Counted from the first letter of the whole stretch, positions 4,036-62,353 are shown. The stretch: DNA of 63,531 nucleotides, filler included, from Folioceros fuciformis (GCA_049999805.1; 9 parts of 9 records of this genome joined end to end with filler, not necessarily neighbours in it), one strand, 5' to 3'. Program-made: numbers and translations. Notes: a model not told the origin generated them from the letters alone.

Positions 4036-11145
<7,110 letters not shown>

Positions 11146-17920: not shown

Positions 17921-20677
17921 TTATACTTGATGCGCTGTATGTTCCTGAGGGCGCTGCTGAGGATTTGCATTGGTTGGCTTGAAGATGACCACGTGACTTG
18001 GAAATAACACACCGACCATTCTTCCTTCCTTGGGGGTACTTGCCAGCAGTATTGTCTGGCTTGGCAGTTCAATCACAGCACGCAATTTGTTCTCTGCCAG
18101 CTGAAGAAGGAATGGATGTTGATTCAGTGCCCTGAAAGTCAAAACCTCTGGTTTTCCCTCTACCTTTACGCTGCTCATGAGGTCCTGATCAATGAGCCTC
18201 ATTATACGAATTGTGGAGGGCCAATCTGCAGCAAGTGTTTCTGGTGACGAACGGAGTCTGTAACACTCTAACTTGCAAATAGCCACAGTCTGTCCTTGAC
18301 GGTTAGCTGCTAATACACCGTCCCACAACTTTGCATACCTTCCTCCAGCTGCCTGAGAAGACTGTGGAACCTGTTGCTGTGGATTCACCGGGGGCTGGCC
18401 AATTGTGTGCTGAGGTTGGTGGAGTGTCTGTTGTTGAAGAGTCTGGTGTGAAGTTTGTGTGACGGAAGATTGTTGCAAGACTTGTGTAGGCTGTGCTACC
18501 TTAGAGAGAGTACCCGTGCCTCCTGGTAGACTCTGTTGTGAAGTTTGTGTGACGGAAGATGGTTGCAAGCCTTGAGTAGGCTGCTCTATGTTAGAGAGAG
18601 TACCAGTAACTCCTGGTATTCTGTTTGCACGTACACCTCCAATTTGAGTTGCTTCTCTGTTCGGAAGATGACTTCCTGATCTCAAACCCCCTGCGCTCCG
18701 TGAATTATGTTGGCCAATTGGTGGAGTACCTAGGCCCCTCGCCTGGCTAAGTCCTCCAGGTAGCCGACTGTCCGGAACACTGACAGCAGGAAGCTCCTCC
18801 CGGGTTATAATCAAGTTTGCGGGCTGCATGCCATTAGGGTGCAACCCATTTGCAACATTTCCCTGTCGGGCCATGTCTACTTGTCGACTACTGACGCCCA
18901 CTTGACCTCCACTTGCATTAATTCCAGTTCCCATAGAGGCCTGTCCCTTTGTAATTCCAGCTAAACTGCTTACTCTCTGTCCTTGATGGTTAGGTGCTAA
19001 TACGCCGTCCCACAACTTTGCATACGTTCCTCCAACTGCCTGAGAAGACTGTAGAACCTGGTGCTGTCGTTTTGCCGGGGGCTGGCCAAGTGTATGCTCA
19101 GGTTGGAATGTCTGTTGTTGAAGAGTCTGCTGTGAAGTTGGTGTAACGGAAAATGATGGCAAGCCTTGAGTAGGCTGTGCTATGTTAGAGGGAGTACCAG
19201 TAACTCCCGGTATTCTGTTTACAGCGACACGTCCAACGTGAGTTGCTACTCTGTCCGGAAGCTTACTTCCTGACGTCAAAACCCCTGCCCTCGGTGAATT
19301 AAGTTGGCCAAAAGGTGCAGTACTGATACCCGTCTCCTGGCCGAATCCTCCAGCCAGTTGACTGTTGGGAATACCGACAGCACTAACCCCACCCCGGCGC
19401 ATGATCAAGTTTGGTGGGGCAGTAGGGCGCATGCCATTCGCAACCGCTCCAGCTATTTCTGCCTGCGGACTGACTACCCCCTGATCACCACGTGCATTAG
19501 GCCCAATTCCCATACACTCCTGTCGTATAGTAACTTCAGGGAAAGAGTTTGTCCCAGTGCCCTGAGGCGGGTGGGTATGTGCAACCCCCTCGAAGCTTCC
19601 ATCCCCAGCCTGCAAAGCATCATTATTGCTCGCCTGATGGATTACATTGTGTGAGACTGAGTTCAAGGCATGCAGTACTGGATCCGTGGAAGAGGCCGAA
19701 CCAGCGTTGATCTCAGTTACACCTGTTCCAGTCGTCGCCTTAGTATTTACAACCCGTACAGGTGGCAGTAGTGAGGAAATCCCAGTCCTTGGTTTGCCGG
19801 TTGGGTCGCCGACGGAAGGTCCATCAATCACACTTGTCGCTTGTCCTGACGCGATGGGAATGTCATGAAGTCCAGCTTCCAAGCCTGGAGGCACAGAGGA
19901 GTTGTTCCCGTTGATGCCCAAAACAGCACGGGCCTCCCAGAAACCATCCGAAAGAAGAACTGTGTCATTGGAATACTGTCTGGGAATGACCACTTCTGGG
20001 TCAGCTGACCTTGTATTCCGCTTGGCTAGGTTGTAAACGGAGCGCAGCTGGGGGAGTCTTCTTGGGCTGATGACCGACAAGGAAACGTAGCATTGAGGGA
20101 ACCACTTGGCCACCTCCTCTGAATCTGCAAGGCGCCACTGGCGTGTCTCTGATTCCGAGGCACCAGAGTCGCTATTAAATCTAATTGGTGGGGTGACAAC
20201 AGGCTTAGGTATGCTGCAGGGAGCAGATGTAGCTATCAGGAGAACGTGCTTCTGCCTTTGCGATCCAGGTACGTTTGCCACACCTTCTTCCCCTGGAATA
20301 CACATGAGGAGAGCCTCTGCCAGCCCCTCGGCCATAGCCACTTCCCCAAATCCTCCCCCACTGAACTGGATGTTATGGAGCCAGCGAAGGAAGATATCCA
20401 TACTGCTGGTCCAGCCCACGAGCTGTACCAACGCTCCATGACAAGCACGATGGCTGTTGAACAAAACCAAACCAGTTTCTCCTGACGTAACTGACAATTT
20501 AGTCCCGTTAACGTCCTGACCGTAGAAAGCCCGAACAATTTTCTCCGCATACTCGCTGAGTAGATGAGACCATTGATATCCCAAAGCCGCTGTGCTTTCA
20601 ACCACTACTACCAGCTGACGAAGTGGAAGTGTCATATGTTGTGACATGGTGTTGGCGCAAGCTGCAGGAAAGATCAT
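17921..20677 (-). CDS. MED25: Mediator subunit 25 (PFT1)-like, single exon, up to 918 aa
   Basis: N-terminal vWA LVVVVESTAALG..FSGGGFGEVAMAEGLAEALLM; C-terminal ACID domain YAKLWDGVL..ICKLECYR..ETLAADWPSTIRIMRLI..FLLQLAENKLRAVIELPSQTILL; true start may be the downstream Met of MSQHMTL. Confidence 0.93.
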   Translation of the reverse strand: MIFPAACANTMSQHMTLPLRQLVVVVESTAALGYQWSHLLSEYAEKIVRAFYGQDVNGTKLSVTSGETGLVLFNSHRACHGALVQLVGWTSSMDIFLRWLHNIQFSGGGFGEVAMAEGLAEALLMCIPGEEGVANVPGSQRQKHVLLIATSAPCSIPKPVVTPPIRFNSDSGASESETRQWRLADSEEVAKWFPQCYVSLSVISPRRLPQLRSVYNLAKRNTRSADPEVVIPRQYSNDTVLLSDGFWEARAVLGINGNNSSVPPGLEAGLHDIPIASGQATSVIDGPSVGDPTGKPRTGISSLLPPVRVVNTKATTGTGVTEINAGSASSTDPVLHALNSVSHNVIHQASNNDALQAGDGSFEGVAHTHPPQGTGTNSFPEVTIRQECMGIGPNARGDQGVVSPQAEIAGAVANGMRPTAPPNLIMRRGGVSAVGIPNSQLAGGFGQETGISTAPFGQLNSPRAGVLTSGSKLPDRVATHVGRVAVNRIPGVTGTPSNIAQPTQGLPSFSVTPTSQQTLQQQTFQPEHTLGQPPAKRQHQVLQSSQAVGGTYAKLWDGVLAPNHQGQRVSSLAGITKGQASMGTGINASGGQVGVSSRQVDMARQGNVANGLHPNGMQPANLIITREELPAVSVPDSRLPGGLSQARGLGTPPIGQHNSRSAGGLRSGSHLPNREATQIGGVRANRIPGVTGTLSNIEQPTQGLQPSSVTQTSQQSLPGGTGTLSKVAQPTQVLQQSSVTQTSHQTLQQQTLHQPQHTIGQPPVNPQQQVPQSSQAAGGRYAKLWDGVLAANRQGQTVAICKLECYRLRSSPETLAADWPSTIRIMRLIDQDLMSSVKVEGKPEVLTFRALNQHPFLLQLAENKLRAVIELPSQTILLASTPKEGRMVGVLFPSHVVIFKPTNANPQQRPQEHTAHQV

Positions 20678-21362
20678 ACCCTGTCCAACCTAACTGGACT
20701 CTTGAAGATGCATCTATATCTTAAAACGAAAGCAGTTTGGCAACCCTAGTGCTATGTATAATCCCTATATTAGTATATACCTAATTGAGTTTAGATCGTG
20801 ATATTAGCAAGTGCTTAATTGATGTTAGTTTGCAAGATGTATGAGAGGTTAGTTTGTAAAGTATACTAGGATTGATTTGTAAAGTATATGAAGACTAAAT
20901 ATAGAATTTATCATTTTGGATTATAACAATTAGTTTGAACTAATTTATCACTTTCTAGGTTTGGGTTACAAGTCCTTAAATTAGTTTGAACTAACTTATT
21001 GATTTTTGTTTTATATTTACTTTGGATCAAATATACTTTTCATTGTTACATTTGAAGGAAGATAGTGTAGGCATGACGAAGTAAAAGTGTCATCTGTTGT
21101 GACATGGCGCTGGCGCAAGCTGCACGAGAGACCATAGCTTGTCCAACCTAACTACTATCTTGAAGATGCATCTATGTAATATCTTAAGAAAAAAAATACT
21201 AATAAAAAGAAAGCAGTTGTAGCAACTCTAGTGCTATGCATAGATCCCGATATTAGCAAGTGCCTAATTGAGTTTAGATCCCGATATTAGCAAATGCCTA
21301 ATTGAGGTTAGTTTGCAAGATGTATGAGAGATTATGCAAAGTATACTAAGGCTAATTTGTAA
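20628..21362. repeat. Diverged tandem duplication of the MED25 5' end and upstream region
   Basis: GTGTCAT.TGTTGTGACATGG..GGCGCAAGCTGCA..TCTTGAAGATGCATCTAT..GTTAGTTTGCAAGATGTATGAGAG at ~20628-20890 and ~21088-21362. Confidence 0.85.
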
Positions 21363-22577: not shown

Positions 22578-23990
22578 CTACTGCAGCTTGTTGGAGATCG
22601 GGATCCAATTCTCCCTCCCCAAGTTCAGCAATGTGCTGAAGTATAGAATCGCCGAGGAACCTTCGATTCTGTGACAGATTGCGCTGAACCTAGCCTCCTT
22701 TAAAAGCTTGCATGCGTACCCTTCCCCCACACCCAGACCCTCTTGTACAATACTCATGGCCCTTAGCTTGACAGTCTCCCATAGCCTAGCCATACGAACT
22801 TCCTCTGCGACTCCTAGCTGTAGTGACCGAGTAGGTAAGGCCTGCAACTCCTCCCTTTTTGGCATCCAGTAGTAGAAGGTGTTCTCCACCTTCTTCCTCA
22901 TGATGACACAGGTTTTCACCTGAGTGATGGTTGCGTTAACAAGCCTTGGGAAGAAGTTTTCCTGGATTTGGCGAGCCCACCTCTGCGTAGCCAAGTTAGC
23001 TCTCCAAGGCTTCTTCTGAGTTCCTTGAAACCCCGGTAGGGGTCCAGACTGTGTCTTCGCAGAGTTGACACTCCTGCTGCCTTCTGGACCTGAGCGAAGC
23101 GGACAATCTCGTTTAAGATGGTTAGTCAAACCACATACTCCGCATCTAATAGGAAGACCAGGGTAATCAAAAAGCTGTGTGTAGCTCTTTGAGGAGTCTG
23201 CCGGATCACGAACCACCACCCCAGCGGGCAACGAGGAGAGGTTGTCTACTCTTACACCAAAGCGGGACGGCTTGTTCCTGTCAAAAAACTGGTAGTCCAC
23301 TTGTGGCACCTCAACCACCTGTCCAATGGTTTCCAGCATCCTGTTGATCAATGGAATAAGTTGCATCGGTAAGGCAGGCAGCCGCACCCAGACAAAGTGC
23401 CTCTTGATCTGGGACTGCATAATTGTACTGCCAGGAGACCAAGCCTCAACCATCATCGGGGTTGAGCCTCTGAAAAGCTGTGTTGTTTGCAAGAGCGCAA
23501 GGACCTCAACATCTTCATCGCATTTCACCTGAAAAGAGCCATCATCCTTCAGGAAGACGTAAGCGGGGGGACACCCTATGACCGAGGCAACCCATTCCTC
23601 CAACTCGCCTACAGAAGACAGCCCTCCAATAGATAGCTACCCCACCACCGAACTACCGGACAGCCTAATCTCCTCATGCTAAAAAAAGCGCTCCTCAGTA
23701 AGGATGTTCGCCAAAGGACCAAGCTAGATGCCGGCCTCCTCATTTGCCGAAGTTGAGGCAGATTCCGTACTTGCGTCCTCATTTGACATCCCATGAGCGG
23801 TGTCGTTCTCGAGATTCCGTACCTGAGCCTCCTTCTCAGGCACTGTTTTCTTCCGCCTAAGCTCGTCTGGATTAGTTGCATCCTTTCCTGCGTTAGGCTT
23901 CTGTCTATTCTGCACGCTTGAGCACATACCGGCCACTTCGGCCCATGTGGGGACTGTCGAGCCCCCCCATGGGAAGCTCATTGCTTCCAC
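22578..23990 (-). mobile_element. LINE (L1-type) ORF1, decayed (DUF4283-like region + CCHC knuckle)
   Basis: TWAEVAG; PMMVEAWSP..FVWVRLPALP..IGQVVEV; FDYPGLPIRCGVCGLTNHLKRDC; frame breaks near 23.6-23.9 kb. Confidence 0.8.
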
Positions 23991-24084: not shown

Positions 24085-24176
24085 TATGCATGAGTGGTTT
24101 GACCCTTCTTTCCAAGTTGGACTCTTCTTCGTAGACCTATGCATGAGTGGTTTGACCCTTCTTTCCAAGTTGGACT
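24085..24176. repeat. Direct repeat at contig end
   Basis: TATGCATGAGTGGTTTGACCCTTCTTTCCAAGTTGGACT x2. Confidence 0.85.
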
Positions 24177-24403
24177 NNNNNNNNNNNNNNNNNNNNNNNN
24201 NNNNNNNNNNNNNNNNNNNNTTAATTAATTAANNNNNNNNNNNNNNNNNNNNNNNNNNNNNNNNNNNNNNNNNNNNGGATTTGGCAGCGGGTTGGGGAGT
24301 TTTCTAGCGCTCAAGGAACAAGGCTCGTCGAAGGCTGTGTCTGCTGTTTGCTGTTTCCGATTGGATTGACGGGATCGGAAGAAAAAGGAAAAAAATCGAA
24401 CAA

Positions 24404-25413
24404 ATGGCGCATGCGCTGGCTGCCGTGAGGTCTTCAAATGCGCCGGGTTGCGCTTCGTGTGGCGAGATTTCCAGTTTTTCTGTCCCAGCGGGACGCGTGC
24501 CTTTGAGTAGGCTATCCATGCCGTTCAGTTCTCATCTGGGACAAAAGATGCTGTCAGGTAAGACTTAGTGCTTAGCCTAGCGTTCGTGGTTTAGAGAGGA
24601 AGTGACGCATGTGCAGAGGAGAGGAGAGGAGGAAGTTTGAATGGCGAAATTGTCGTGGTTTGGTGCAGGCGCGTCGAGTTGTCCAAGGCGGAAGCTTGTG
24701 GAGAGAGTAGGTACAGTTTGCGCTGCAGAAGGTGATGCATTTTTTGACTCCAGCATCGTCCAGAGCGAAATCGACAGGCTGCAGGCCGACTATCAAGCGC
24801 TCTTGAAGCTCGTGAGTTCCTCTTGCCCTCGCCGGGTGAGGAAAGAAAACCTGGAATTTGGAACTGTTGGCATGGCACTGTGTGAGACTGGGAATGCTTA
24901 CACGAGATGGCGGTGCTCTATGTCATGCAGGGAAGAAGGTATGGCCAGTTTGACCGAGAAGGCAAGATTTCCTACATCGCTGAGATGAAGGTAGGAAGAA
25001 CAATGGTCTTCATGACTGTCACAAGATTGGATCTAGTTACTTTGTGGGGAATGCGCATCGCTGAACGCCCGTTTGTTGCTCTGTGTTGTTCTCCATGCAG
25101 AATGTGATTGAGAGATGGCAAATTTTTTACAAACGGATGGAACTCTCCGACGACTTCACCGCTAAACTCTGTGCAAAGCAATTAAAATCTAGGGTAGGCC
25201 TGCAGCAGTCCCTCGTACCTCTTACAAGGAATGACACGTCTAGTTTCTCCATGCTGTATCTACCGGCGACCTGTTGCGCATCGGATAACCGGCTAACTGT
25301 GGCGTCTTTGCTTGCTTCAGTGCGGTCCTCTAGGGCTCAGCAATCTGGATCTGGTACAATCCCTGTATTCTGCCCTAGACGAAATGAGAGATGAGGCTGA
25401 GGCTGGTCAGTAG
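24404..25413 (+). CDS. DUF1825-family protein with N-terminal transit-peptide-like extension; 5 exons (24404-24557, 24669-24811, 24931-24990, 25101-25193, 25321-25413), 180 aa
   Basis: Four GT-AG introns with consistent phases; mature part AFFDSSIVQSEIDRLQADYQALLKLGRRYGQFDREGKISYIAEMKNVIERWQIFYKRMELSDDFTAKLCAKQLKSRCGPLGLSNLDLVQSLYSALDEMRDEAEAGQ* matches the recalled cyanobacterial DUF1825 pattern FFDSEIVQ..YGKFDREGK..IFMKRFELSEDF. Confidence 0.88.
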
Positions 25414-25419
25414 TCGGGC

Positions 25420-26920
25420 ATAATGCCTGTGTTTCCTCAGCGTGGGACCTTTCAATTCCGGATACCTATGCTGGATCCAGCAGGTTGTGGAAGGCAACCC
25501 TGCTCGTCTACGCGAAAGCCTGAGGATTCTGAGATCAAGCTTCTGCCGGTTCATTCCGGCTAAACTTTCTTTCTCTGGGGCTCGATCGGATGCACACGTT
25601 CTGTCGATAAAAAACTGTTGAAGAGCCCTCCATGGTTGTACAGAGTTTACGACAGCAGCACGCGAGGTGGTTGGCAGGACACCACAAGGAGTACTAGTGG
25701 TCGTCAATGAGTTGTGGGCTGTACAGCACACATGTAGAAGGCCGGCTTCACACTCGTAAACCGACGAGACAAGGCAGAGAACGTGCGAGCTCTTTTTGTT
25801 GTACAGAGAACGGAAATGTGAAGTTGTGGAGGTTGTCTTCATCCCGCCGATCACCTCATCATCCAGTCACCACTGCCTGGAAACTTTAGGGGCATTGGCC
25901 AAAACGCCTTTCATAAATTTCGAAGTCGTGTGCTAAGGATCAAGGTCAGCTCTCGCTTTACAGCAGTATCTTCAGCAGCGGGTGCGTGTTGTCCTCCAGT
26001 AGGCACTTGTTAATTGTTGTTCTGCAATAAGCAATTGTAGGAGCTGTCCTATGCTCTCCACACATTCATTGTACAGTATTCAATCTGGAAATCTATGTAG
26101 GAGGTAGCTTCTAGGCACGGAGTTTGGTTGTTCCTTGGATCTCCCTTTGATGTCCTTGCGGAGCTGGGTTCGCCCTTCGCCCCTTTCCACGAATCACATG
26201 TGACGTCGTCGCATGTACATGACTGTTCAGGCCTTGCAAGTCCCTCCAGCCTTTACACAGGACACATTCTGCAAACGCGAGGTGCAGAGGGGCCTTCATG
26301 GCCGTCCAATCGTGGATGCCATTCCCCCGTTTTTGGTCCCACGCCACTTGGTCGATGGTCATGGACGCGCAGCAGCATAAGTTGGGTTCGGGGGATTGAG
26401 AGACGCGGCTCGTCGTTCGTCTTCACATCCATAATTCCATGGCCACCGGCGAGCTCAGGCCACGAGTACGTAAGGCCCACGTCCCACACGTCGCTACCGA
26501 GAACGATTCGCAGCCTACAAGGGGTAGCATTCCTATGATGGCACCCTAAGAACTGAAGGCGGGCATCGCACAAAAGGGTGGGCCCATTCCTTCGGGAACT
26601 CGCCCCTTGACTGGCCTGTGTCACACTCTCTCCACACTCTGCCAATTTGGAGCAGTGTCTGCTAGCCTCCTCCTCCTTCTCTCCCTCCATCCTGCCACCA
26701 ATGAAGGTGTGGAATCATAGGAGCTCAGTTGGTGTCCCTGCCTTGCATAAAATGGGCTGCACCTTTCGTGCCAAGGACCTGGGACTTTAGGCTGCTAAAG
26801 GAGTTAGCATTGCAGCTGGGCTGCAATGTACGCACGGTCGAAAGGCTGCTAAATGCATATCCAGCAAGGAGGTGGGTGTATGGCAGGCTGTCGATGGAGG
26901 AGGTGTGGACACTCTAATAA
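25420..26920. pseudogene. Degenerate F-box/kelch/LRR-like fragments on both strands
   Basis: + strand LYRVYDSSTRGGW and NVKLWRL..AWKL; - strand LAFAECVLCKGWRDL; many stops. Confidence 0.3.
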
Positions 26921-27313
26921 GATGGCACGGTGTGAATGCGTGATTCGATTTGTGCATGTTGAGCTGCAGCTGGATGGAATTGAGATACCAAGGAGGTAGG
27001 TAGCAGAAGCATTGGGCTTCATGCAACCAGAGGCCCATGTGCATATATAGGCGAGAGAGATGCGCAGACAAGGCTGAACGCTGCGAGGTTGCTAGAACTT
27101 GGCATCTCCAGGATCGATGCTGAACCATAAACCGTAACAAAAAGAATGTGACTAATTGAGTGACTGACCCGTACAGCCGCAGGTTTGTTGTTCCCATCGG
27201 TCGCCCTACGACCGATGGGGGCGAGTTTGTGACGTCCAAAATTTTGGACCGTGCGCAAAAAACAAAATTGTCAAAGACCGAGTCACTGTATCGGTATTCC
27301 ATAAACAGGAAAG

Positions 27314-27432
27314 CTAAGTGGGAGCCCTTTATTCCGAGCTTCTTGCCTAAGTGGGAGCCCNNNNNNNNNNAGCCCTTTATTCCGAGCTTCTTGCCTAAGT
27401 GGGAGCCCTTTATTCCGTCCGAGCTTCTTGAC
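27314..27432. repeat. 33-bp tandem repeat spanning a 10-N gap (probably collapsed array)
   Basis: CTAAGTGGGAGCCCTTTATTCCGAGCTTCTTGC, at least 3 copies. Confidence 0.9.
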
Positions 27433-34189: not shown

Positions 34190-37100
34190 TTGTTATGTAA
34201 TTCTTTGCTTAATGGCTTTGTGAAAACATTAGCTGGAGTTCCTTGTATAGGGACATATTTCACTTTACCTTTCCAACTGCAACTAAATCTCTTATAAAAT
34301 GATATTCCACTTCAACATATTTTGTTCGAGAGTAAAACACTGGATTTTGTGCTAAAGAAATTGCTCCTTGATTGTCTGTATGTATTGTTGTGCAAGCAGG
34401 AATTAATAAGCCAAGTTCCTTAAATAACAACTTACATCATATATCTCTTTGGCAGTTGCTGTAAGCACTCTATACTCAGCTTCGGTGCTAGATAAAGCAA
34501 CTATAGGTTGTTTTTTGCTAGACCAACTGATAGGTCCTCTAGCAACACAAACCACATAAGCAGAAACTAATTTCCTGGTGTCTACATCTTCTGCATAATC
34601 AGAATCTGTAAAAACTTCCAAAGTAAGTTCTTCATCCTACTTGCCCTAAAATCGTATGCCTCTGTTAAACGTGCCTTTCAAATATCTAAGTACACGTTTC
34701 AAACATGTCCAGTGTTCCTATCCTGGATTCTCCAAATACTGAGACAATACGCTGGTTGCAAAGGCTATTTCGGGTCTTGTAGTATTAGCAGCATAAATCA
34801 ACTTACCAACAGCCTTTCTATAAGGTATCTGAGACATAGCTTCCTTTTCAGTTTGTGTACTAGGACTCATACTTTTACTTAACTTAAGTCCTATTGGTAA
34901 AGGAGTAGAAACAGGCTTAGCATCCTTTAAACCTAATTGTTCTACACAGTCTAAAATATATATGGGCTGTGATAAATTTAAAAGTCCTTTACTTCTGTCT
35001 CTTTGTATATGGACACCTAGACAACTTTGTAAAGGTTCTAAATTTGTCATTTTGAATTTAGCTGCTAAGAAATTATTTACTTTACTAATGAAAGTTGTGC
35101 TATTGCAAAATAAATAAAATTAGGTCATCTACATACAAGGCTAAATAGAAAATAACATGACTTTTGATGAAAATATAAAGACTGCTATCTGCTCGACTCT
35201 TTACAAAACCTAAGGTACGTAACTCTTCATCTAACACCAAATTCCATTCTTTTACTGACTGCTTAAGTCCATAAATTGTTTTAATAAGTTTGCAAACTAG
35301 CTTCTCCTTTCCCTTTACTTCATAACCAAGAGGTTGCTGCATATATATATCGGTGTCAAGTTTGCTATAAAGAAAAGCAGTTTTAACATCCAACATCTGC
35401 AGCTCATAGTTCTTGTAGGCTGAAATAGCACATAAAACACGGATTGTAGAAAACTTCACAACAGCAGCAAAGTTCTCAAAATAATCCAAACCAGGTACTT
35501 GAGAAAAACCTCTGACAACAAGTTTGGCTTTGTATCTATCGAAAGTGCCATCAGCCTTAACTTTCAACTTAAACACCCACTTACAAGACACTAAATTCTT
35601 ATCAGGAGGCAACTCCACTAACTCCCAAGTGCCATTTTCAATCAAGGAATCATATTCTAATTTAATGNNNNNNNNNNNNNNNNNNNNNNNNNNNNNNNNN
35701 NNNNNNNNNNNNNNNNNNNNNNNNNNNNNNNNNNNNNNNNNNNNNNNNNNNNNNNNNNNNNNNNNNNTATTTACTATCAGGTCTACTCAAAGCTTCCTCA
35801 AGAGATTGAGTTTCAAGAGGAAGGGAGATGGCAGCCAGAACTTTTACATAAAACACACCTGCTCTACTTGCTTTAAAATCAAAAGCTTGATAATAATCTG
35901 ATCAAAATGAGAAATTGGAGGAAGGGATGAATCATCAGCACTCTCCTCTTGAACTGAATTTTCAGTGTCAACTAATCCTACTAATCCAAAGGTACTCTCA
36001 TCGAAAGTAACACTTCTTGCATAAGAAACTTTATTTTTAACAACATCCTATAATTTATAGGCCTTGATGCCTTCTGTATAGCCTAGCATGAGAAGTTTCC
36101 TTGACTTATCTGAAAACTTTTTACGCTTCTCTTCGGGTATGAAAGCATAAACAACACAGCCAAAAATCCTTAGGTGTTGAATTGATGGCTTCCGTTCGGT
36201 AAAAGCCTCATAAGGTGTCATATTATTAACAGAATTTGTTAGCAACCTATTTTTGAGGTAAGTGAATGTCATTAATGCTTCTGCCCAATATGGTTAAGGG
36301 AGCTGAGCTTGATGAAGCAAACATGCTATCATTTCTTGTAGAGTTAAATTCAAGGGCTCTGCAACTCCATTCTGTTGATGAGTGTAAACTACTATCAATT
36401 GTCTCTCAATACCAACGTCCACACAATAATCCTGGAAAGCATGGGAGGTAAATTCTCCACCATTATCTGATCTCAATGTCTTCAATTGCTCTTCAGTCCA
36501 TCTTTCAGCCCTTAAAATAGGAAAAACACTCACTTTTATGTTTTAAAATATATGAAGTGATAAATTTGGTTTTACTATCTGTAAAGGTTAAGAAATATTT
36601 TCCACCACCTATAGACTCTTGAGAAAGGGACCCACATAGATCTGTGCGTACAAGCTCCAATGTTTAATGTGCTCTATGGGGAGTCAATTTTTTGAAAGCA
36701 GCTTGATGTTGCTTGGACAAAACACAAGACTCACAAAGTGGCAAGCTGGGTAAAGGACCAATTTTTCCATCTTGATACAAATCACTAATAGCTAATTTTT
36801 GCAATTTAGTATTATGTGGGTGTCCCAATCTAGCATGCCATAGCTTTGACTTTTCTATTTGCTGGTTAGAGATTGACATCTTGTGTTAAATTAGACTCTA
36901 TAGGAATTTGTTTTTTATGTAAAAGGTACAAACCTTTTGCAAAGGATCCAAAACCAATTATTTTCTCATAATCAAGTGCATCTATCAATTGGCATTTTGA
37001 TTGTGTAAACAAAACATGATAATTATTATCTGCACTTAACTTCTTAACATATATCAAGTTCCTAGTCATGTCCGGATATGATAAGCATCATTGAGAAGCA

Positions 37101-37274
37101 AAATGGTCCCAGAAGGTAATGACAATTTGATTGTGCCTTTGCCAGGTGTAACAAGGGACCTATCATCTCCTAGATAAACATACTCATTTGAAACTGACCA
37201 ATATGTTGTGAATGAACTTTTATCAAAACACACATGTGCTATAGCGCTTGTATCTAAATACCATTCACTAGAAC
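34190..37274 (-). mobile_element. Decayed Ty1/copia pol (protease, GAG-pre-integrase, integrase, RT, RNase H)
   Basis: WYLDTSAIAHVC; LWHARLGH..CESC; LRSDNGGEF..QQNGVAE; LDVKTAFL; LYVDDL; FTDSDYA..ALSSTEAEY; ADVFTKPL; frameshifts and stops. Confidence 0.95.
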
Positions 37275-37374
37275 NNNNNNNNNNNNNNNNNNNNNNNNNN
37301 NNNNNNNNNNNNNNNNNNTTAATTAATTAANNNNNNNNNNNNNNNNNNNNNNNNNNNNNNNNNNNNNNNNNNNN

Positions 37375-38700
37375 TGGATACTGAGGAGCTGGTTCCATCT
37401 TTACAAGAGCCAGCACATGAAGAAACTGTACAAGCAGAGAATCCAATCGTTGACGAAGAAGAGCAACCTGCACCAAGGTACAACCTAAGGACCAGACCTC
37501 CTGTCTCTGGGCCTGCAGGATGGAAGGAACCACCTTTAGGATACCTTGCCACTTTTGATGATCCCTCCTCACCTTTCTCCCATTTTCATCAATCTGTTTA
37601 TAAAGCTACAGTTGATCCTGAAGAGCCACTAACCCTTTAACAAGCTTTTTCTTCTCTTGAGAAGGATTTATGGAAAGCTGCAGTGGACTCTGAGTATGAC
37701 TCCCTAGTTAAGAATTCCACATGGGACTTAGTCAAACCACCCAAAGGGAGAAAAATAGTTGGGAGTAAATGGGTCTTCAAAATTAAACGTAAGGGTGATG
37801 GTTCCATTGAGAGATATAAGGCAAGATTAGTAGCCAAAGGTTTTACCCAGATACCGGGTTTAGATTACATACCCTGGGCTACCTATGCTCCAGTAGCAAA
37901 GTTTGCCTCTCTCAGAACTATAATTGCCTTATCTGCTCAGCATGATTTACATCTTCATATGATGGATGTCAAAACTGCTTATCTGCATGGACGCATTCAA
38001 GAAGAAATATATATGAAGCAACCTGAGGGATATGAGGTCAAAGGCAAAGAAAATATGGTATGCAAATTAATAAAAGGCATTTATGGCCTTAAGCAATCTG
38101 GCAAGGAATGGAACAATGTAATACATGATAAGCTGATCACATATGGTTTTGTACAAAGCAAGGCTTATGCAAGCTTGTATATATTGAAGACAAAACAAAA
38201 TACAGTTTATCTATTACTTTATGTGGATGACTTATTTTTAGCATCCTCACTCTCCCACCTAGTTGAGATCAAAGCTTGGTTGAGAAGTCACTATGAAATG
38301 ACAGACTTGGGAGAACTTACCTATGCCCTTGGAGTTAATGTCATAAGGGATAGAAGTGACAAATCCTTTTCCTTAGTTCAGACAAAATATATAAATGAAA
38401 GTTTAGCCAAGTTTGGACTTGAAGACGCTAAACCAGCTGCCACACCATTTCCTAGTGGCACAAAGCTCACTTTAGATATGAGCCCTAAGACTGAAGCTGA
38501 AAAAGTCGAGATGTCAGCAGTACTATACAGACATGCTGTTGGTACCTTAATCTATTTAAGTAACTTCACAAGACCTGATATATCTTTTGAAGTTAGTGCA
38601 GTCTCACAATTTTTAGAGAACCCTGGAAGACAACATTGGCAATGTGTTAAGAGGATTTTCAGGTATCTCAAAGGGACTATGCACACAGGACTTAAATACA
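37375..38700 (+). mobile_element. Ty1/copia reverse transcriptase, truncated before RNase H
   Basis: RYKARLVAKGFTQIPGLDY; MDVKTAYL; IYGLKQSGKEW; LLYVDDL; HWQCVKRIFRYLKGT, then abrupt loss of similarity. Confidence 0.95.
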
Positions 38701-41700
38701 GTCATAACGAGAGATGGTTGCCCTAGGATAGCCCGCTTCTCGGCGTTAAGCGTAGATTTAGGTTAAGCATACACACGTAATACGAACGGGCTCGAAACGT
38801 GCCCTAATGAATCGTTACCCGTCAACCGTCGTACAGGTTCACGGGAAACGACCATAAAAGGCCTCACTCACACATATTAATTAATTCTCACTCATTTATG
38901 TTTCTTTCCTACGCTAGCCTGTCGATCCTATTTACGCTATGGTATTAGAGCCGGTCTATGGATCCCGCCATGTCGCCCTCCAACGTGTGTGAGATCTGCA
39001 AATCCGAGTGCTATATTAAGAGTCTGTCACACGAGAATTTTTCATGCAGCAACTCAAGCACTCAGACTCTTCCCCACCCGATTTGGTGTAATGGCGGAAG
39101 ATTTCTTGGCGGAGGTCATCAACCACTACTATGCGTAGCGTCCGCACACCTAGCGCCAAGGAGCAGCGAGCCACCCTGATGAACCCGCGTTCGAAGGTCG
39201 CTAGATTACAAGCATCACGCGTCCTGATTTGGTCTTTGCCCTGCACAGTACAATCAACCACGCACACCTCTAGCATGACCTGTGATTAGTTCACTGGTGT
39301 CTAAGACTCAATCCACTATAGAAAAGAAGCCTGTGTAGGAGCACCAGGTCATCTGCACGTCTTTCCTAGTGTCTCCTCTCACACTTGGAAACAAGTAATG
39401 ATAATCGGGAGCCCTTGCACACAGTCGTCAGTCTACAATCTTGCATAAGGTATGTCAACGACTAGACTTCTATCCTAAACAATGCCTCGCAATGGCCGCA
39501 CAAAGCGCACCTTCAATCCACAAAGGCAAGTAGCCTCTCCCTTTAGGAGCAGTGCAGATCAGCAGTCCCTCTTTTCCAGCCTCTCACAGTGGGACGTTCC
39601 TGTCTGCACTTACCAAGTTGCGAGCTCTTGCAACACTTGTGGAAGAAGTGGGCATCTGCGTCCATCTGCGAGCACACCTGGAATCATGACTGGTCAGGCA
39701 GAGCCGGTGCTGAAGATTGTCCGTGACCTGTTTGCTGAGGAGCGCCGCCACACTCACGCAACACTGTGAATTTTTCGGCGGATGCGTGAAGTTCAAGAGG
39801 AGCGCCTCCGCAGCAAGGTCGATGACATTAACTACAGAATTGCCATGCATATTACCTGAAGGAAGATCCAAGGACGACGTTATTTCAGAAGTGGCTGCAC
39901 TCCTAACACACATGTCACTTGAGGCGAAATCCAGGAAGATGGTGTTTGAATATGTCGGAACCTTGGGATCCAAGCCCAGCAAGGAGGCCACCTCGCCGGA
40001 TTCCTACTAGATCTGGAACGACACCTGCAAGGTCGAGATCTGAAGCGTCACCTGAAAGACTTAGATCTGAAGAGGCATCTGAAACGTCACTTGCTCCCGG
40101 ATCTGAGGGGACACTAGAAGCATCCCTAGCTTCCGGGTCTAAAGAGATGTCACCATTTCCTGTCTTTCCAGAAAATCCCTTTGACTATTCAGAAGCTTAT
40201 GACCTTCCAGATCCCTCACCAATCTTTACAAGTACCATTGGCACGGGAGACTTAGGTGCAGTCCCCGTTCAGCCATCCTCACCTAGCAGCATTGCTTCCA
40301 CACCAAGGTCCATACATAGTTCACACAGCTCCTCTTCCTTATCCCCTGATCGCCTGTTTGATCTAAGTCAAACCCAGTTTAGCCAATATACATTTGTCCC
40401 TGTCATGGCTAATCCTCCACCTCCTGCAAATGTCACTGTCAACAATTTTAAGTATGACTTCAAAGATAGAGATAGGTTTAGTGGTCAACACTTCGACATC
40501 TGGATGATTCGAGTTCGGACCATCTTTCAAGAATTGGAAATCTGGGACTACGTGACTGGCATCATTCCAATGCCTGCAGCTGCTGCAATTGCAGCTGAAA
40601 AACAAGCCTGGAAATTAAAAGATCTGCGTGCCCAGAATGTGATCCAGTCTGCATTAGACCTGAGCATGATGTCTCATGCTCGAGAGGCAGACAGCTCCAA
40701 GGCAATCTGGGACTCTCTCTGCCAAGTGCACCAAAAGAAGAGCGTGACATCATTGGTCCATGCCACACGCACCTTCTACAACCTGAGAATGCGAGATGGT
40801 GATATTGTTGAGAACCATGTCAGCCGCTTTAAGATGCTTCGCACCAAATTAATTACTGCCAGCACAACTGTTGATGAACTTCAAACTGCAGTGGCCCTTC
40901 TCATGTCACTACCAGAAAAGTATAACAGCTTTGTGAGTACTCAAAATCAACACATCCAGACTGCCCAAGCAGCAGTAGCTACAGGCACACCATCACCAAT
41001 CACACTCTCAGAAATTATTGGTGCTCTGTTAAACGAGGAGGCTACTCACACTCGTGGCCGAGGTTCCTCCTCCAACAATGCTGCACGTGCCATGTTCGTG
41101 TCCCGAGGATGAGGATGGCGTGCTCTAGGTGGCAATCGCCCACCTTATAAGCCTAGCTCTCCTCACCCAGCATGGCCAGCCTCGAAGTCCAGCACTTCAA
41201 AGAGAGGCCCATGCACATGGTGCAGGATTCCTGGCCACGTGGAGTCTGAATGCCGCAAAAAGCAGAGTGGCAAAGCCAAGAGAGAAGCTCCTCCATCTGC
41301 CTATGTATCCTCCAAGAAAGGCATAGGGGCCATCCTCACAGTATGCATGGTCTCCTCCTCACAAGATAGGCATGCCTGGTACCTAGATTCAGGTGCCACA
41401 ACACATGTCTGCAACACTCGCACAGCCTTTACCACTTTTATACCTTCTCCTAAGGGACAGTTTGTACTTCTAGGCAATGATAGCGGGCTGTGTATAGAGG
41501 GCAATGGCACCGTTGTCCTTCATCCTGCACAAGGTCTGCCCATCACATTATTAGAGGTTATCTATGTTCCTCAGATGGCTAAAAACCTTGTATCACTTAG
41601 ACGCCTGTCACCTCCGTTACTTCCCTTGAGATGACCATGGATGGCCTTGCACTGAGAGAGGCTGCTGCTCCACACAAGTTGTTGGCTACATGTACTCTCA

Positions 41701-42985
41701 AAAATGACCTGTACCAGTTTAACTTGAAGAGCAACCCTATCCAGCAATTGAAGGCACCAACAGCCCAGTCTGCAGTATCCACGCCAGTTAATGAGACACA
41801 GCTTTGGCACTGCCGCTTGGGGCATGTTCACTTACAACGCCTTCAAACTCTGCCATCTTCTTCTCTATATCGGACGCCGCTTCACTTCAAATCTGAGAAG
41901 AACATCTTCTGTGAAGCCTGCATACAAGGGAAGCATCATAAGGCCCCTCATCCCAGTCAAGATGCTACTAGGGCCACTCACCTACTCCAAACTGTGCACA
42001 CTGACCTCTGTGGTCCTATGTCCACATGTTCACTTAGTGGTGCTCTCTATTTTATGCATCTAATTGATGACTGGAGTCGGTTTACTATCACTTACTTTTT
42101 GAAGCATAAAAATGAAGCATTCTCTTGCTTCCTTCTGTACCTCGCATATGCTGAACGATTCACAGGTCAGAAACTGAAATGCTTGAGAAGTGACAATGGC
42201 GGTGAGTTTACCTCAGGAGAATTCACGGAGTTTTGCTCACGGGAGGGCATTCTTCGCCAACTTACAGTTCCCTACGAGCATGAACAAAATCCTCTTCCTG
42301 AGAACAAAAACAAAGTCACACAGGCTGCTGCCAAGTCGATGCTGCATCTGGCCCGGCTCCCTCGGTGCTTCTTGGCTGAAGCTTTTGCCACGGCGGTTTA
42401 CATACAAAACCGGCTACCCACTCGTGCTTTTGCCAATGCTACACCTTTCAAGAGATGGACTGGCGTTAAGCCTCGAGTGGATCACTTGCGGATATGGGGC
42501 TGTCCAGCCTATGCACATACACCTGATGAGGTCAGATGCAAGATGGATTTCAAGGCAACCAAACACCTGTTCATCGGCTACACAGAGGGCATTAAGGGCT
42601 ATAAGCTTAATGACCCCTTAAGTCGACGCTTCCTACATGCCAGAAACGTCATATTTGACGAGCAGTTTCTTCTGCAAGCTTCAGAAAAAGGCAGAGATGT
42701 GCCTGGCCTAGAGCGTCTTACGAATGATGAACAGGATGCATCTTTGACTGAATTTTCAACACATGACGGACACTTGGTCACCCCTCAACAAATACCAACT
42801 GTTCCTGCGCAGCCTGCAGACGTCTTTCCAGAAGATGAAACGGATCTCACCGCGGATGACTCGAGCTCAGAGGCAAGTGACCAGGCGGGTGAGGCCCAGC
42901 AGGAGAACTATGACAATATGGATGATGACAGTCTCCCATCTTCGCCCTCACCAGAACCTGAGGAGAATGATGAGGAACATGCATC
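38701..42985 (+). mobile_element. Second Ty1/copia element apparently nested in the preceding RT: LTR/leader, extra upstream ORF, gag, protease, integrase
   Basis: gag DRFSGQHFDIWMIRVRTIFQELEIWDYVTG..LLMSLPEKY; CTWCRIPGHVESEC; WYLDSGATTHVC; LWHCRLGH..CEAC; HTDLCGP; LRSDNGGEF; LTR limits uncertain. Confidence 0.9.
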
Positions 42986-43370
42986 NNNNNNNNNNNNNNN
43001 NNNNNNNNNNNNNNNNNNNNNNNNNNNNNTTAATTAATTAANNNNNNNNNNNNNNNNNNNNNNNNNNNNNNNNNNNNNNNNNNNNGGAAGAGGGAGATTA
43101 GGGGAGGCGGGGGGGCCGTACCATGCGAAAGAGAGAGAGGCAGCGAATGAGGCGGCGTCGCGTGTGCCGGGGGTACCATCAAGGCGGGGCCTACCCAAAA
43201 GGAATCCGCCCCGCCTGCCGAGGCGCGCAACCAGACGCGGGGGCTGGCCCAATCCCGGGTCCCACCAACGCCCGTTTCCTTCACAAAACGCCAACTCACC
43301 ACACTCCCATCATCACACACAAACCCAAAATAAAATAAAATAAAATCCAAATCAAACCAAAACAGACCAA

Positions 43371-45606: not shown

Positions 45607-48168
45607 ATATAATGGATCCCAAACAGTTGATACAGCCATGGCAACTGGAAGGGCTAAAATCGCACAAATTGTGCCACCAACAAGTATTTCCATGCAACTC
45701 CACATGCGTGTCCAATTCTTTTTCTGGAGAAAAAAAAAAGCTGAATATGAGCAATATTTATATTTCCATCGTGTTCCTTTCCCTTTCTTGTGGATGGTGA
45801 CGCCATTGAAAGTATTCCAGCGATCCACATGTGCATATCTTTTTGAAAATCTCTTTGTGAGTGAAGAAAATTCCATAATGCGATTCTCCAAGTCCTTGTG
45901 TTCTGAGGTTGCATGCAAGTTTATAGTTGAGGATTCCACTATCTCGGTGCTTCCATTTTCTTGATCATGTAAGTTACTTCCAGATGAGGAATAATCTATG
46001 TCGGCTCCATCATCTTGATGAATTGTTGGGGATCCTTTACTTTTGCAATGTAGATTCACCACACTGCTTTCATGTTCTTCGTGCTCAAATGTTGCATCCG
46101 AAGCAATTGGGTTATCGTGAACACTCCAACCATTGTCACTTGAAGTCTGTAAATCAATTTCTTCAGCATCATGTCTTACTTCATCGGAAGGAATGATATG
46201 ATCAAGCACACTTGGTTCTGATTCCACATGTTGTGCTTCTTTACTAATTGCCACAGAAATAGAATCAAATTGTGATGGCAAAGAATGTTGATCTGCGGGT
46301 TGGTTCTACATGGAGATAAAATAGTAACATTTTTAAAATTTGAAAGGAATGAGAAACTTCCTTTTTGAATTGCAAAGCTATGTAGCTTGAGATGAAGATG
46401 AATGTACCTTAACAAGACAAAAATCTGTATCATTTGTGGATTTGTTTCTCAGGTAGTCATCATCGAACAAGTCCATGCTACTTGAATCCGTAAGAAAAAA
46501 CGATTCTTTCTCCATTAGACTCATGTTAGCCATATTGGTTTGGTTTAAGTTGAATGACTTGGAAGAACACTTCTCTCCTATCCTATCCTTTTGTATCATG
46601 CTGTCAAAACTCCTTCTGTCGTCAAAATCTTCAATGGAGGTGAATTCAGCTCGTTCATTGCCATTATCTCCCCCGTCCTCATCATACTCTGATGCATCAC
46701 GATCAAATATTGGTAGTATGGTGTTATCAAAAAGACTCAGTAACCCATTTGTTTTCTCTAAAGTGGCTGCACCTTCCTCCCTTTCTGTTTCTACACCTGG
46801 CCTCATGTTTGAGGGAGTGTTTGCGCACTGTGTATTAGGAAGTAAAGCATGCTTCTTCAGTTTGCAAAACAGGTCTCTTTTATTTCGCTGCTCCTTTCTC
46901 CGCAACTGTTGGGAAGTGCGGATACATTGTTCGTCGGTTTCAGAATTGATTCCCAGCATGTCACCCTTATCCATCCTACCTTCCTCCGCTAAGCTCACTG
47001 AAGAGGTCCACTTGGATGGCTCGTACCTGGCTGGAAACCTAGAATTCCTCCTGTGTTTCGCGCTTGATTCCGATGGCGTTGATGAGGATGGAGAGGGGGA
47101 GAAGGAAATTACTTGAGATTCTTGGGATAAGTGAGATTCTTTTTGTGCTTGAAGCATTGCACCTTCTTGTTTATTGCAAGGAGTGGTATTCCAAGCGTTG
47201 CTGGATTTCCTGTAGTAATCCAAATCCATGAATGCGGACGGTCCGGGAATTGGTTGCTCCCCCTTTGCACTCCTCCTGGAATTTTCTTCCGAAAGCAGAA
47301 ATTTAGCGGTTTGCAAACTGTCCGCTACCGCCGACCGGACGTGCGGTATCCTGTCATGACGAAAGGCCTCTAGCACCTGCATAGTATAACTGACTTCAGA
47401 TGCCAAGGTGATGGTGTCGAGCTTGGCGAGAACGGCCTGGATCAAACGAGCGGCAGACACACGATGATGCCATGTGCCATTCCCAATAGATGCGCGTAGA
47501 GCTTGACATGCAGATCGGAGTAGGGCAAGCCCGTAGGCACCTAACACATCTCCATTTTTCAATGCTAGGGCACGAGCGAGCTGCATATGTCCAACCGTCC
47601 TGGTTGCCTTGTCTCCCAACGCAATGGTGCACCTCAAGCATGTCTCTTGGATCAAGTCCATGGATGCAAACTTCCACATGTCCGACTCTACCAGTGCCTG
47701 CAGACAAATTGCAGCTCCTGCCGCTAGAGGTTCAAACGTGCCCGCCAACACCTCCAACAAGGGCACACAAACCTCGTTTACCAGAGTGTGCGCTTGCCCG
47801 AGAGGAGCCAGCGGATCCATGGTATGTTGCACAATAGCTACCACCACATGCGCACATGCCTGGTGCAATTGCAACGAGCTCCCGCTCGCCGAGAGGAACC
47901 TTACGATGGTGGACAACATACGAGGCACATGCTGGATGATGAAGTTGCCATGTATCCGTGCAACATCCTCGAAGAGGGAGATGGCGTAACAGCGAGTGGT
48001 ACCTTCGTCTCGACACTCCGAAACTTGGGCCAGGAATCGTGGCACTGAGCCGGCGTCTAACTGGCCCACGAACGACTTGAGGGAATGCATTGCCAGACGC
48101 CTAGAGTCTCCATCCTCGCTGAGTTTGGCTAGATCCTGCTTCACGAGGGGGCTCATGTACCTCCCCAT
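45607..48168 (-). CDS. SINE1: SINE1/SINE2-like ARM-repeat KASH protein; exon 1 48168-46408, phase-0 intron 46407-46306, exon 2 46305 into the N gap
   Basis: MGRYMSPLVKQDLAKLSEDGDSRRLAMHSLKSFVGQLD..FLAQV..AISLFEDVARIHG..GAAICLQALVESDMWKFAS matches the SINE N-terminus; AAG|GTACAT..ATGTAG|AAC joins two same-frame ORFs; TM helix ILVGGTICAILALPVAMAVSTV just before the gap. Confidence 0.88.
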
Positions 48169-48815
48169 GGGGATCCCGCTACACCAGATGGCGACAACGT
48201 CGCCGGCCTGCCCTGCCTTGCTTTGCTTTGCCTTGCCTTGCCTTGCCCTGACTGCTTCACATCACATGCCCATCATGCTCCCGCTCATGCGCATCCACTC
48301 TCCACCTCCCTTAGGATTACTACACACTAGAGAGCATGCACCGGGCGCGTGCTTGTAGGTGGTGAAACGAGAGAGTGAAAGGCGGCCCGGTTTGAATCTT
48401 AGCACACTAGACGGAGCAGCAGCAGCAGCAGGAGGGTCAGGAGCCAGGAGCCAGGAGCAGGAGCAGGAGCAGCCGCAGCAGCGAGGAAGTCACGACTCCC
48501 TGGAGCCGGGCCAACCTGACCTAACCTAACCTGGCCTAACCAAACCTAACCTAACCTAACGGCCTCTGCTGCCGGATACAGCCGGTGGCGGCCACCGGAC
48601 CGACCGGTGACGCCGAACGCGCTTGGCGTGATCCGGAACACGACAAAGCGGGCCAGTGGGTATCCGCCAGCGCGGCGCTCCGTATGGCATCATCGATGGA
48701 CGAGGCTGGCGCGCGNNNNNNNNNNNNNNNNNNNNNNNNNNNNNNNNNNNNNNNNNNNNTTAATTAATTAANNNNNNNNNNNNNNNNNNNNNNNNNNNNN
48801 NNNNNNNNNNNNNNN

Positions 48816-61000: not shown

Positions 61001-62253
61001 CAAGGGTTGAGAGTAGCCAGAAGGTCAGCCAGGCTCGAAGGAAGAGGAACCGCCGTAGCGACAAGTTGGGAAGGCCTTGTGCTAGGCAGTTGCTACCAGT
61101 TGAGGTGAGGAGATTTCTGGAGTTTGGAATCATGCCAGTTGGATTGAGCCGCGAGGGTAGGGCAGTGTTCTTGCACAAGACAGGCCCATATTGTTTGAAG
61201 CAAGGGGTCTTGTACAAAGTAGGCCCAGATGGTAAGGTGAGGCGTTGTTTGGAAGTGAATGAAGGTGTTGTGGTGACCGAAGCTTTGCATGCGGAAGAGG
61301 CAGGAGGCCACTATTCAGTCCCCATTACCATCAAGAAGATCTTGGATACTGGGTTTTGGTGGGCTACCATGCAGAGGGATGTGTGGGATTTTGTAAGAAG
61401 GTGTGATGCTTGTCAAAGGGTAGGGAGACCCACATTGACAACCAGGTGGTCGTTGACCTACATTTTGCCGTTGGCTCCGTTTGAGAAGTGGGGGATCGAC
61501 TTTGTAGGGCCGATTCGTCCACCTACTCGCTGGACAAGGAAGCAACACATCTTAGTGGCAACGGACTACTGTACCAAGATGGTGGAGGCAAAGGCTACCC
61601 AACGGGACGATGCCCCAACAGTGGCCAAATTTCTGTTTGAGAACATCATCACACGCTATGGGTGTCCGTTGGAGTTGGTCAGCGACAGAGGTACACATTT
61701 CCTCAATGAAGTCATCACCGCCTTGACCACTTACTTCAACATTCGACATAGGAAGACCACTCCTTACAATCCGAAGGCAAATGGGTTGACGGAGAAGACC
61801 AATGGTCTTTTGGGGACCATCTTGACTAAGGTGACTGTGACTCACATGTCCGATTGGGATACCAAGTTGCATTCAGCACTTTGGGCTTACAGGACAGTAG
61901 AGAAGATCACCACGAAGAGGACTCTATACTACTTGACCTATGGTATGTCGCCTGTTCTTCCCATTGAGTTTGAGATTCCCACTCACCGTGTCATGGAGGA
62001 GGCTAGGCTACCGGTGAGGGAGAGCCAAGAAGCTAGGTTGGAAGCTTTCATCACCTACGAGGAGGACCGAGAAGAAGCCTTCGAGGAGACACATAGGATA
62101 CAAGAGCAAAGGAAAACCCACCACGATGGTAGGTTGAGGAAGAAGGAGACCATCGTACAGGGCGATTTGGTGCTACTGTATGACAGTAGATACATGGATT
62201 TCCCAAGTAAACTAAGGTTGAGGTGGATGGGTCCTTACAAGGTGAAGGAAGTG
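58013..62253 (+). mobile_element. Ty3/gypsy element (probably non-chromovirus): LTR/leader and RT-RNase H-integrase; gag/protease not seen
   Basis: SEWVAPIVVVPKK..VRVCQDFRKLN; LPFGLCNAP; VYVDVSAYAIGAILSQ; NYSTTEREAL; H..GGH..CDAC; WGIDFVGP; SDRGTHF; RWMGPYKV; stops and a deletion in RT. Confidence 0.95.
58511..58671. repeat. 41-bp tandem repeat x4 in the gypsy LTR/leader
   Basis: GTGTTGCCGGCTGTACAGTGTCTGGTAGGATCGCA... at 58511, 58552, 58593, 58634. Confidence 0.92.
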
Positions 62254-62353
62254 NNNNNNNNNNNNNNNNNNNNNNNNNNNNNNNNNNNNNNNNNNNNTTA
62301 ATTAATTAANNNNNNNNNNNNNNNNNNNNNNNNNNNNNNNNNNNNNNNNNNNN

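Follow-up and report, generated by a model that had tools for sequence, protein, structure and literature searches.

The closest described relatives of the gene discussed here are cyanobacterial DUF1825 family proteins of ~105 amino acids (aa), for example Gloeobacter Glr0782 and the proteins of Gloeomargarita and Calothrix sp. NIES-3974, which at 105 aa consist of the domain from end to end and start directly at M-x-FF(D/E)S. Cyanomyophages carry homologs of ~110-123 aa (phrog_468), and chlorophytes carry fusions in which DUF1825 stands between an N-terminal leader and a C-terminal STI1/HOP DP module. In a metagenome study, as far as the passages naming the domain go, DUF1825 abundance correlated with that of Photo_RC, which the authors ascribe to cyanophage co-occurrence and taxonomy (PMC3597751); elsewhere DUF1825 is listed on a viral contig, again in the passage that names it (PMC10343443). 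No functional study of DUF1825 was found by name or by PF08855, IPR014954 or pfam08855 in a literature search that did not cover supplementary tables. The papers that mention the family give it no function and leave the accession numbers unmentioned, in keeping with an earlier reading of the DNA made without database searches (the sequence-only reading), which had called the family unstudied. That reading proposed a hidden DUF1825 gene at 24404..25413, plus strand, of a 63,531-nucleotide (nt) stretch from Folioceros fuciformis (GCA_049999805.1; nine parts of nine records joined with filler), the whole of which is called the window below. The gene is almost certainly a real DUF1825 gene with five exons; it is intact, nuclear and single-copy in the window. 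Unlike the cyanobacterial proteins, it is nuclear, is interrupted by four introns and encodes a leader of ~73 aa ahead of the domain. It adds a member, apparently unannotated so far, to a family that is known but uncharacterised, and is not a new kind of system.

The gene opens with exon 1 (24404..24557, 154 nt; aa 1-51 and the first base of codon 52), which contains the start codon and most of the leader. Intron 1 (24558..24668, 111 nt, GTAAGA...GTGCAG, phase 1) holds an in-frame stop and so is not readable through. Exon 2 (24669..24811, 143 nt) carries the end of the leader, with V68-C69-A70/A71, and the start of the domain, whose coding sequence begins at ~24734 (aa 74). After intron 2 (24812..24930, 119 nt, GTGAGT...ATGCAG, phase 0) follows exon 3 (24931..24990, 60 nt, aa 100-119) with the YGQFDREGK motif, then intron 3 (24991..25100, 110 nt, GTAGGA...ATGCAG, phase 0) and exon 4 (25101..25193, 93 nt, aa 120-150), which spans the predicted helix 2 and an ELSDDF turn. 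Intron 4 (25194..25320, 127 nt, GTAGGC...CTTCAG, phase 0) precedes exon 5 (25321..25413, 93 nt, aa 151-180 and TAG), which encodes the last helices of the domain. When joined by script, the exons form an open reading frame (ORF) of 543 nt, i.e. 180 codons plus the TAG at 25411-25413, and this terminal stop is the only one. The ATG at 24404 is the first in-frame ATG 3' of a stop ending at 24307. All four introns begin with a GT donor and end with a pyrimidine-rich tract and a CAG acceptor. The five GT-AG-spliced exons and the intact 180-aa ORF of the sequence-only reading thus stand, as does its remark that the gene shows up only as fragments: in the stop-to-stop listing the exons are pieces of five separate frames (24308..24568, 24641..24988, 24886..25107, 25065..25394 and 25297..25413).

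Consistent with this model, tblastn of three homologs (two plant, one Gloeomargarita) against the window returned the same exon blocks in frames 2, 2, 1, 3 and 1. With the homolog P0002 the match begins at 24404, and exon 5 is 72% identical to it over 29 aa. The spliced protein aligns without gaps to its homologs across junctions 2-4. Junction 1 lies in the weakly conserved leader, and its support is limited to canonical splice sites, an unbroken frame and a loose match to P0002 in the alignment. No second copy of the gene was found by tblastn in the 63.5-kb window. An assembly gap (44 N + TTAATTAATTAA + 44 N; 24177..24276) ends 128 nt upstream of the start codon, so the promoter region is incomplete; a 24-nt direct repeat (24100-24123 and 24153-24176) adjoins this gap. 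An antisense frame of 163 aa (25375-25866, minus strand) overlaps the 3' end of the gene, has no Pfam match and is probably due to chance.

Membership in DUF1825 was examined exon by exon against Pfam, in which the family has a profile of 103 positions and a curated cut-off of 25 bits. Exon 2 alone matched profile positions 2-26 (23.2 bits), exon 3 positions 27-45 (20.3 bits) and exon 4 positions 48-76 (30.6 bits, above the cut-off). Three successive exons matching successive stretches of one profile exclude a chance pattern. Exon 5 alone had no Pfam match, and the exon scans gave no other domain at a meaningful score, STI1-HOP_DP and TPR included; a weak Zn_ribbon_Thio2 match of exon 1 was disregarded (E 0.065; 13.6 bits, cut-off 27.1). 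The spliced protein was also scored against a script-built profile of the 37 short cyanobacterial-type rows of a 58-row alignment (A2), with land-plant and leader-bearing rows left out, and reached 120.4 bits (E 1.9e-39) over aa 74-177 without a gap. For comparison, full-length homologs score 103-108 bits on Pfam DUF1825. All eight invariant columns of A2 (G100, F106, D107, G110 and K111, all in exon 3, and R124, R131 and L134, all in exon 4) and all 13 near-invariant ones are retained, the conserved positions being spread over exons 2-5. The colinear matches and the profile score confirm the proposed family identity, and the family signature is present as FFDSSIVQ and YGQFDREGK. NCBIfam held no family for any of the four proteins submitted.

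Relatives were sought with several queries. The 115-aa read-through frame at 24641-24985 drew 14 candidates, none significant, since its non-coding part diluted the query. A 45-aa query, the contiguous stretch 25065-25199 around exon 4, matched four proteins, namely Marchantia paleacea Mapa_000428 (P0003, 185 aa), P0002 (193 aa) and two fragmentary forms. P0002 is the closest relative of the spliced protein (110 of 177 aligned residues identical, 62%, and 75% over the tree columns); P0003 shares 90 of 161. The domain is 45-50% identical to the cyanobacterial proteins. A profile of three homologs retrieved 95 proteins at E<=0.001 from 6736 candidates. Only 18 of the 95 carry an organism name: one is from Marchantia paleacea, seven are from Diphasiastrum complanatum and ten from cyanobacteria, among them Gloeobacter, Gloeomargarita, Thermostichales, Pseudanabaenaceae, Calothrix, Spirulina and Alkalinema. 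In a search of 1.84 billion representatives there were 242 matches at E<=0.001, 73 at E<=1e-10 and eight at E<=1e-30. The best 150 of the 242 were examined, and all eight at E<=1e-30 belong to the same land-plant set. An Atlas search with P0003 gave no usable match, and no protein identical to that of the window was present in the protein collection searched. The land-plant members are already public as hypothetical proteins. The closest of the named ones, Mapa_000428 and seven Diphasiastrum complanatum paralogs (P0005-P0012), share with the window protein a leader, of 63-88 aa, followed by the domain, and fall in the same clade; Diphasiastrum complanatum differs in copy number, with seven copies against one in the window.

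The tree comprised 55 rows and 120 columns: the window protein, eight full-length land-plant proteins, ten named cyanobacteria, 16 short and 13 leader-bearing forms and seven of ten cyanobacterial loci. The truncated or read-through P0001, P0004, P0007, P0012 and P0094, the near-identical loci L003, L005 and L006, and all other matches were left out. In this tree the land-plant copies are shown to be monophyletic, the nine rows, window protein included, grouping together (100/99) at the end of a long stem (1.56 changes per column). A second clade is made up of ten leader-bearing rows and a third branch (91/88) of the cyanobacteria, and the three meet at a single node, so that the tree is compatible with one eukaryotic origin without showing it. 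Intron positions add to this picture. The homolog P0094 departs from its spliced relative after ...LLQI, at window junction 2; P0007 parts from P0002 after ...EMK, at junction 3; P0004 departs after ...LKTS and the Diphasiastrum complanatum paralog P0012 after ...LKTK, both at junction 4. In all four the first residue of the departure is V, as a GTN donor would read. These four look like read-through products, and three intron positions thus appear common to the liverwort-like, lycophyte and window genes, P0012 and the window gene apparently sharing the site of intron 4. Together, the land-plant clade and the shared positions suggest that the gene was nuclear, with these introns, before those lineages split.

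The origin of the gene can be weighed on these data. The sequence-only reading had allowed for a gain from a cyanobacterial symbiont, and a recent gain of this kind, or cyanobacterial contamination of the assembly, could draw on the 45-50% identity of the domain to cyanobacterial proteins and on the small size of the gap-bounded piece that carries the gene (24277-27360, 3.1 kb), the downstream gap starting at 27361; linkage to the neighbouring genes consequently rests on scaffolding. As a recent event it is nevertheless rejected as very improbable, given the four spliceosomal GT-AG introns, the eukaryotic-type leader, the place of the protein inside a clade with liverwort and lycophyte proteins and the apparently shared intron positions. 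Forcing the window protein to the sole Nostocales row, a group named after the tree had been seen, costs 115.8 log-likelihood units (p of the approximately unbiased test, p-AU, 9.2e-5). A separate claim, that a Nostocales-like donor passed the gene to the land-plant stem in an ancient transfer, is not rejected: with all land plants held with the Nostocales (Calothrix) row, p-AU is 0.246. The 120 columns place no donor lineage, and endosymbiotic transfer and ancient horizontal transfer both fit the tree data and cannot be told apart by them. In the favoured account, the gene would have passed from a cyanobacterium into a eukaryotic nucleus long before liverworts and lycophytes diverged, and would have gained its introns before that divergence as well. 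A nuclear setting, as had been proposed, is supported by the spliceosomal introns of the gene and by the Med25, MATH plus UCH and TORTIFOLIA1-like genes and copia and gypsy elements elsewhere in the window.

A possible loss in flowering plants had also been raised. It is consistent with the matches but not proven by them: no seed plant, moss or fern occurs among the 18 organism-named of the 95 matches, no plant genome collection was searched, and the other 77 are nameless.

Ahead of the point at which the cyanobacterial proteins begin, the window protein has 73-75 residues, so that an N-terminal extension without counterpart in the cyanobacterial homologs is evident. Transit peptides have many hydroxylated and small residues and few acidic ones, carry a net positive charge and lack structure. 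The 75 aa before the FF motif contain 19% Ser plus Thr, 15% Ala, four Asp or Glu and eight Lys or Arg, as against 17 Asp or Glu in the 105-aa domain, and this composition fits the above traits; the unstructured trait is seen in the model of the homolog P0002, whose residues 15-80 have a predicted local distance difference test score (pLDDT) below 50 and whose N-terminus the window N-terminus visibly resembles. The leaders of all eight full-length land-plant homologs are similar in kind, with 63-88 aa and 1-6 acidic residues. The transit-peptide-like leader of the sequence-only reading is therefore upheld as composition. Its description of the first ~70 aa as rich in Ser, Ala and Arg is correct for Ser (13) and Ala (9); Arg (6) is no commoner than Leu, Val and Gly at six each. 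On this evidence the product is probably targeted to the plastid, and cleavage may occur near V68-C69-A70/A71, which we take to resemble a stromal processing site.

Structure was predicted with AlphaFold2 for P0002, using the 58-row alignment. The model has helices at 93-113, 121-147, 151-163 and 171-191, with 10-residue block-mean pLDDT of 87-96 over residues 91-160, and the domain would accordingly be a four-helix bundle. By this model the invariant G-x2-YG-x-FD-x2-GK stretch would form the turn between helices 1 and 2, and R124, R131, L134 and the ELSDDF turn would lie on helices 2 and 3. A PDB sequence search gave three matches at E<=1 and no solved relative of the family; the best of these, FAP305 (E 0.0027 over 66 residues), was judged to be coiled-coil noise. 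No conserved Cys/His or other catalytic-looking constellation was seen in the domain, because of which a non-enzymatic, protein-binding adaptor is suggested. The explanation preferred here, with reasonable though not full confidence, is that the gene encodes a plastid-imported DUF1825 binding module of ancient cyanobacterial ancestry. A 180-aa precursor, made up of a ~70-residue leader and a 105-residue domain, would be imported and processed to a soluble stromal protein of ~110 aa, the helical domain of which would act as a binding adaptor. As to process, an adaptor or co-chaperone-like role in plastid protein biogenesis or proteostasis is put forward as a tentative leading guess, because chlorophyte relatives fuse DUF1825 to an STI1/HOP DP module.

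That guess comes from the algal members. The family includes ~105-aa forms starting at the domain, leader-bearing forms, two-domain forms of 250-420 aa and forms with a C-terminal STI1/HOP DP module. A Pfam scan of 13 representatives found DUF1825 in all 13 and STI1-HOP_DP in two (P0142 and P0227), which are among four leader-bearing forms of 245-273 aa. In an Atlas cluster of 53 members, all eukaryotic and most of them from chlorophytes, DUF1825 is present in 100% and STI1-HOP_DP in 85%. Like the window protein, P0142 and P0227 carry DUF1825 behind an N-terminal leader (82-86 bits in Pfam); they differ in the C-terminal STI1-HOP_DP, absent from the window protein, and are far more divergent (E 4.3e-13 for P0142 and 2.9e-07 for P0227 against the land-plant profile). 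The co-chaperone guess concerns a possible mode of action; it does not place the window protein among the STI1/HOP-type co-chaperones. The leader-bearing representatives may be algal, their leaders resembling algal transit peptides. A further set (P0141, P0144, P0149, P0151, P0161 and others) is 250-420 aa long, with a conserved N-terminal PIGPFCPF(R/K)S and two DUF1825-like stretches; these proteins look like an undescribed tandem architecture and are probably from non-green algae.

Several observations weigh against the plastid adaptor and its proteostasis role. The STI1 fusion is confined to a divergent algal subfamily and does not occur in the land-plant proteins, and a TPR fusion (P0091) is known from one 1.4-kb contig only and may be an artefact. 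The structure modelled is that of P0002 and not of the window protein; a PDB fold search with it gave none of 440 matches at E<=0.001, with designed helical bundles at the top, and a likeness to the BAG domain of AtBAG4 (fold E 1.0) is insignificant and was not used as evidence. For the window gene itself, both plastid import and expression are putative. Further, no gene partner of cyanobacterial DUF1825 is conserved among the six of ten loci inspected, the phage copies sit among gp33, gp59 and gp32, which points away from proteostasis, and the gap-bounded piece discussed above counts here too.

Neighbouring genes in cyanobacteria vary by lineage, and 11 of the 18 neighbouring ORFs have a Pfam match: FUR and AbrB-family genes (Thermostichus type), a PBP1-type gene (two Oscillatoriaceae), a Na/H exchanger (one metagenome-assembled genome) and signal peptidase. 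In the Thermostichus-type loci (L007 3998-5293; L009 143-1435) a gene for a FUR-family regulator begins 20-32 nt downstream and is followed by an overlapping AbrB-family (PF05145) gene, an arrangement that could be an operon in the Thermostichus lineage only. DUF1825 homologs of 28-32% identity occur in 99 cyanomyophage records. Two phage genes were inspected in place (L011 2501-2872 and L012 2501-2833), where the orders are phoH - exonuclease - gp33 - DUF1825 and phoH - hypothetical protein (similar to gp232) - gp33 - gp59 - DUF1825 - gp32. In T4-like cyanophages a diverged DUF1825 gene is always found in one position, among gp33, gp59 and gp32. PHROGs offered only phrog_468, function not assigned, which is homologous to P0003 (E 1e-14).

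These contexts lend themselves to other functional readings. In a nucleoid of the cyanobacterial type, the domain might act on gene expression or DNA transactions, for instance by binding RNA polymerase, a clamp or a single-strand-binding partner, and not in protein biogenesis or photosynthesis. The number of cyanomyophage records, the gp33, gp59 and gp32 neighbours in the inspected loci, and an overlap with a gp33-type late-transcription or gp59-type helicase-loader gene in 22 of 30 listed phage rows speak for this, as does the nearby FUR-family regulator in Thermostichus-type loci. Phage gene order is nevertheless weak evidence, many of the 30 rows being duplicate records of the same phages, and the phage copies differ from the land-plant proteins not only in identity and in their replication and late-transcription setting but also in 5-6 of the eight invariant residues, so that they may act otherwise. 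Searches of PDB sequences, folds, PHROGs and NCBIfam matched no nucleic-acid-binding family or fold, and the nucleoid role is regarded as possible but doubtful. The same standing, possible but doubtful, is given to a role in building or repairing the photosynthetic machinery, in line with the photosynthesis-related factor that the sequence-only reading had proposed. The spread of the family over cyanobacteria, their phages and leader-bearing eukaryotic forms would suit such a factor, as would the Photo_RC correlation, had its authors not explained it by phages and taxonomy. Gloeobacter is not known to have thylakoids, yet it has the protein. No photosynthesis gene lies beside DUF1825 in the six of ten cyanobacterial loci or in the two phage loci, and a fold match to Psb27 (E 3.1) was insignificant and set aside. 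Distribution is the sole basis of the photosynthesis claim, which is unsupported and is disfavoured by the presence in Gloeobacter, the phage setting and the unconserved cyanobacterial neighbours. It is improbable that the gene is an unexpressed, still-intact relic, or that its product is mitochondrial or dual-targeted. With no identical protein in the collection there is no annotation or transcript support from this species, and leader composition alone does not tell a plastid from a mitochondrial presequence. Against a relic, the 180-codon frame is intact over five exons with canonical splice signals and with 21 of 21 conserved positions kept, and in the homologs P0001 and P0002 the coding sequence runs on without introns, on contigs of 1.8-2.1 kb, as expected of spliced transcripts; descent of the domain from cyanobacteria would favour a plastid over a mitochondrial destination.

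DUF1825 might also be one of a few cyanobacterial-legacy plastid functions kept by algae, bryophytes and lycophytes and discarded by seed plants, which is rather unlikely on present data. Flavodiiron proteins, light-independent protochlorophyllide reductase and the plastid peptidoglycan layer belong among these functions. Were it true, DUF1825 would be a central host factor, of such weight that T4-like cyanophages keep a diverged copy of their own within the replication and late-transcription block, and the land-plant gene would offer a handle on a plastid process unseen in Arabidopsis-centred genetics. Conservation of the family extends from Gloeobacter to land plants, and cyanophages carry it too, with no functional study found. 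If the seed-plant absence is real, model liverworts and cyanobacteria would be the places to learn the function, and the apparent restriction to non-seed plants together with the phage copies makes the family a reasonable target for functional study. Short multi-exon DUF1825 genes escape ORF-based reading, and annotation may overlook them too, since the collection holds no protein of this species and the named plant matches come from one liverwort and one lycophyte species.

Elsewhere in the window, an exon-sized frame at 4603-5247 (plus strand) encodes a MATH domain and then the start of UCH, of the USP7/UBP12-13 type. A Med25 gene at 17924-20689 (minus strand) is a 922-aa open frame with an N-terminal Mediator Med25 VWA domain (124.6 bits); by eye, its translation contains a long Gln/Pro-rich stretch twice, both ending in ...YAKLWDGVLA. 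DUF4283 (22581-23636) and DUF7869 (53368-54144) lie on the minus strand, as does a 627-aa TORTIFOLIA1-like frame (46381-48261) with the N-terminal domain (85 bits) of this plant microtubule-associated family. Retroelement pieces occupy 34718-43037, 48760-50475 and 59016-63115, several of the copia type (RVT_2, gag, integrase) and one of the gypsy type (RT_RNaseH, integrase), some interrupted by gaps. Assembly gaps of the form 44 N, TTAATTAATTAA, 44 N number eleven within 13564-62353, the one upstream of the DUF1825 gene among them; other gaps are plain runs of 10 or 100 N.

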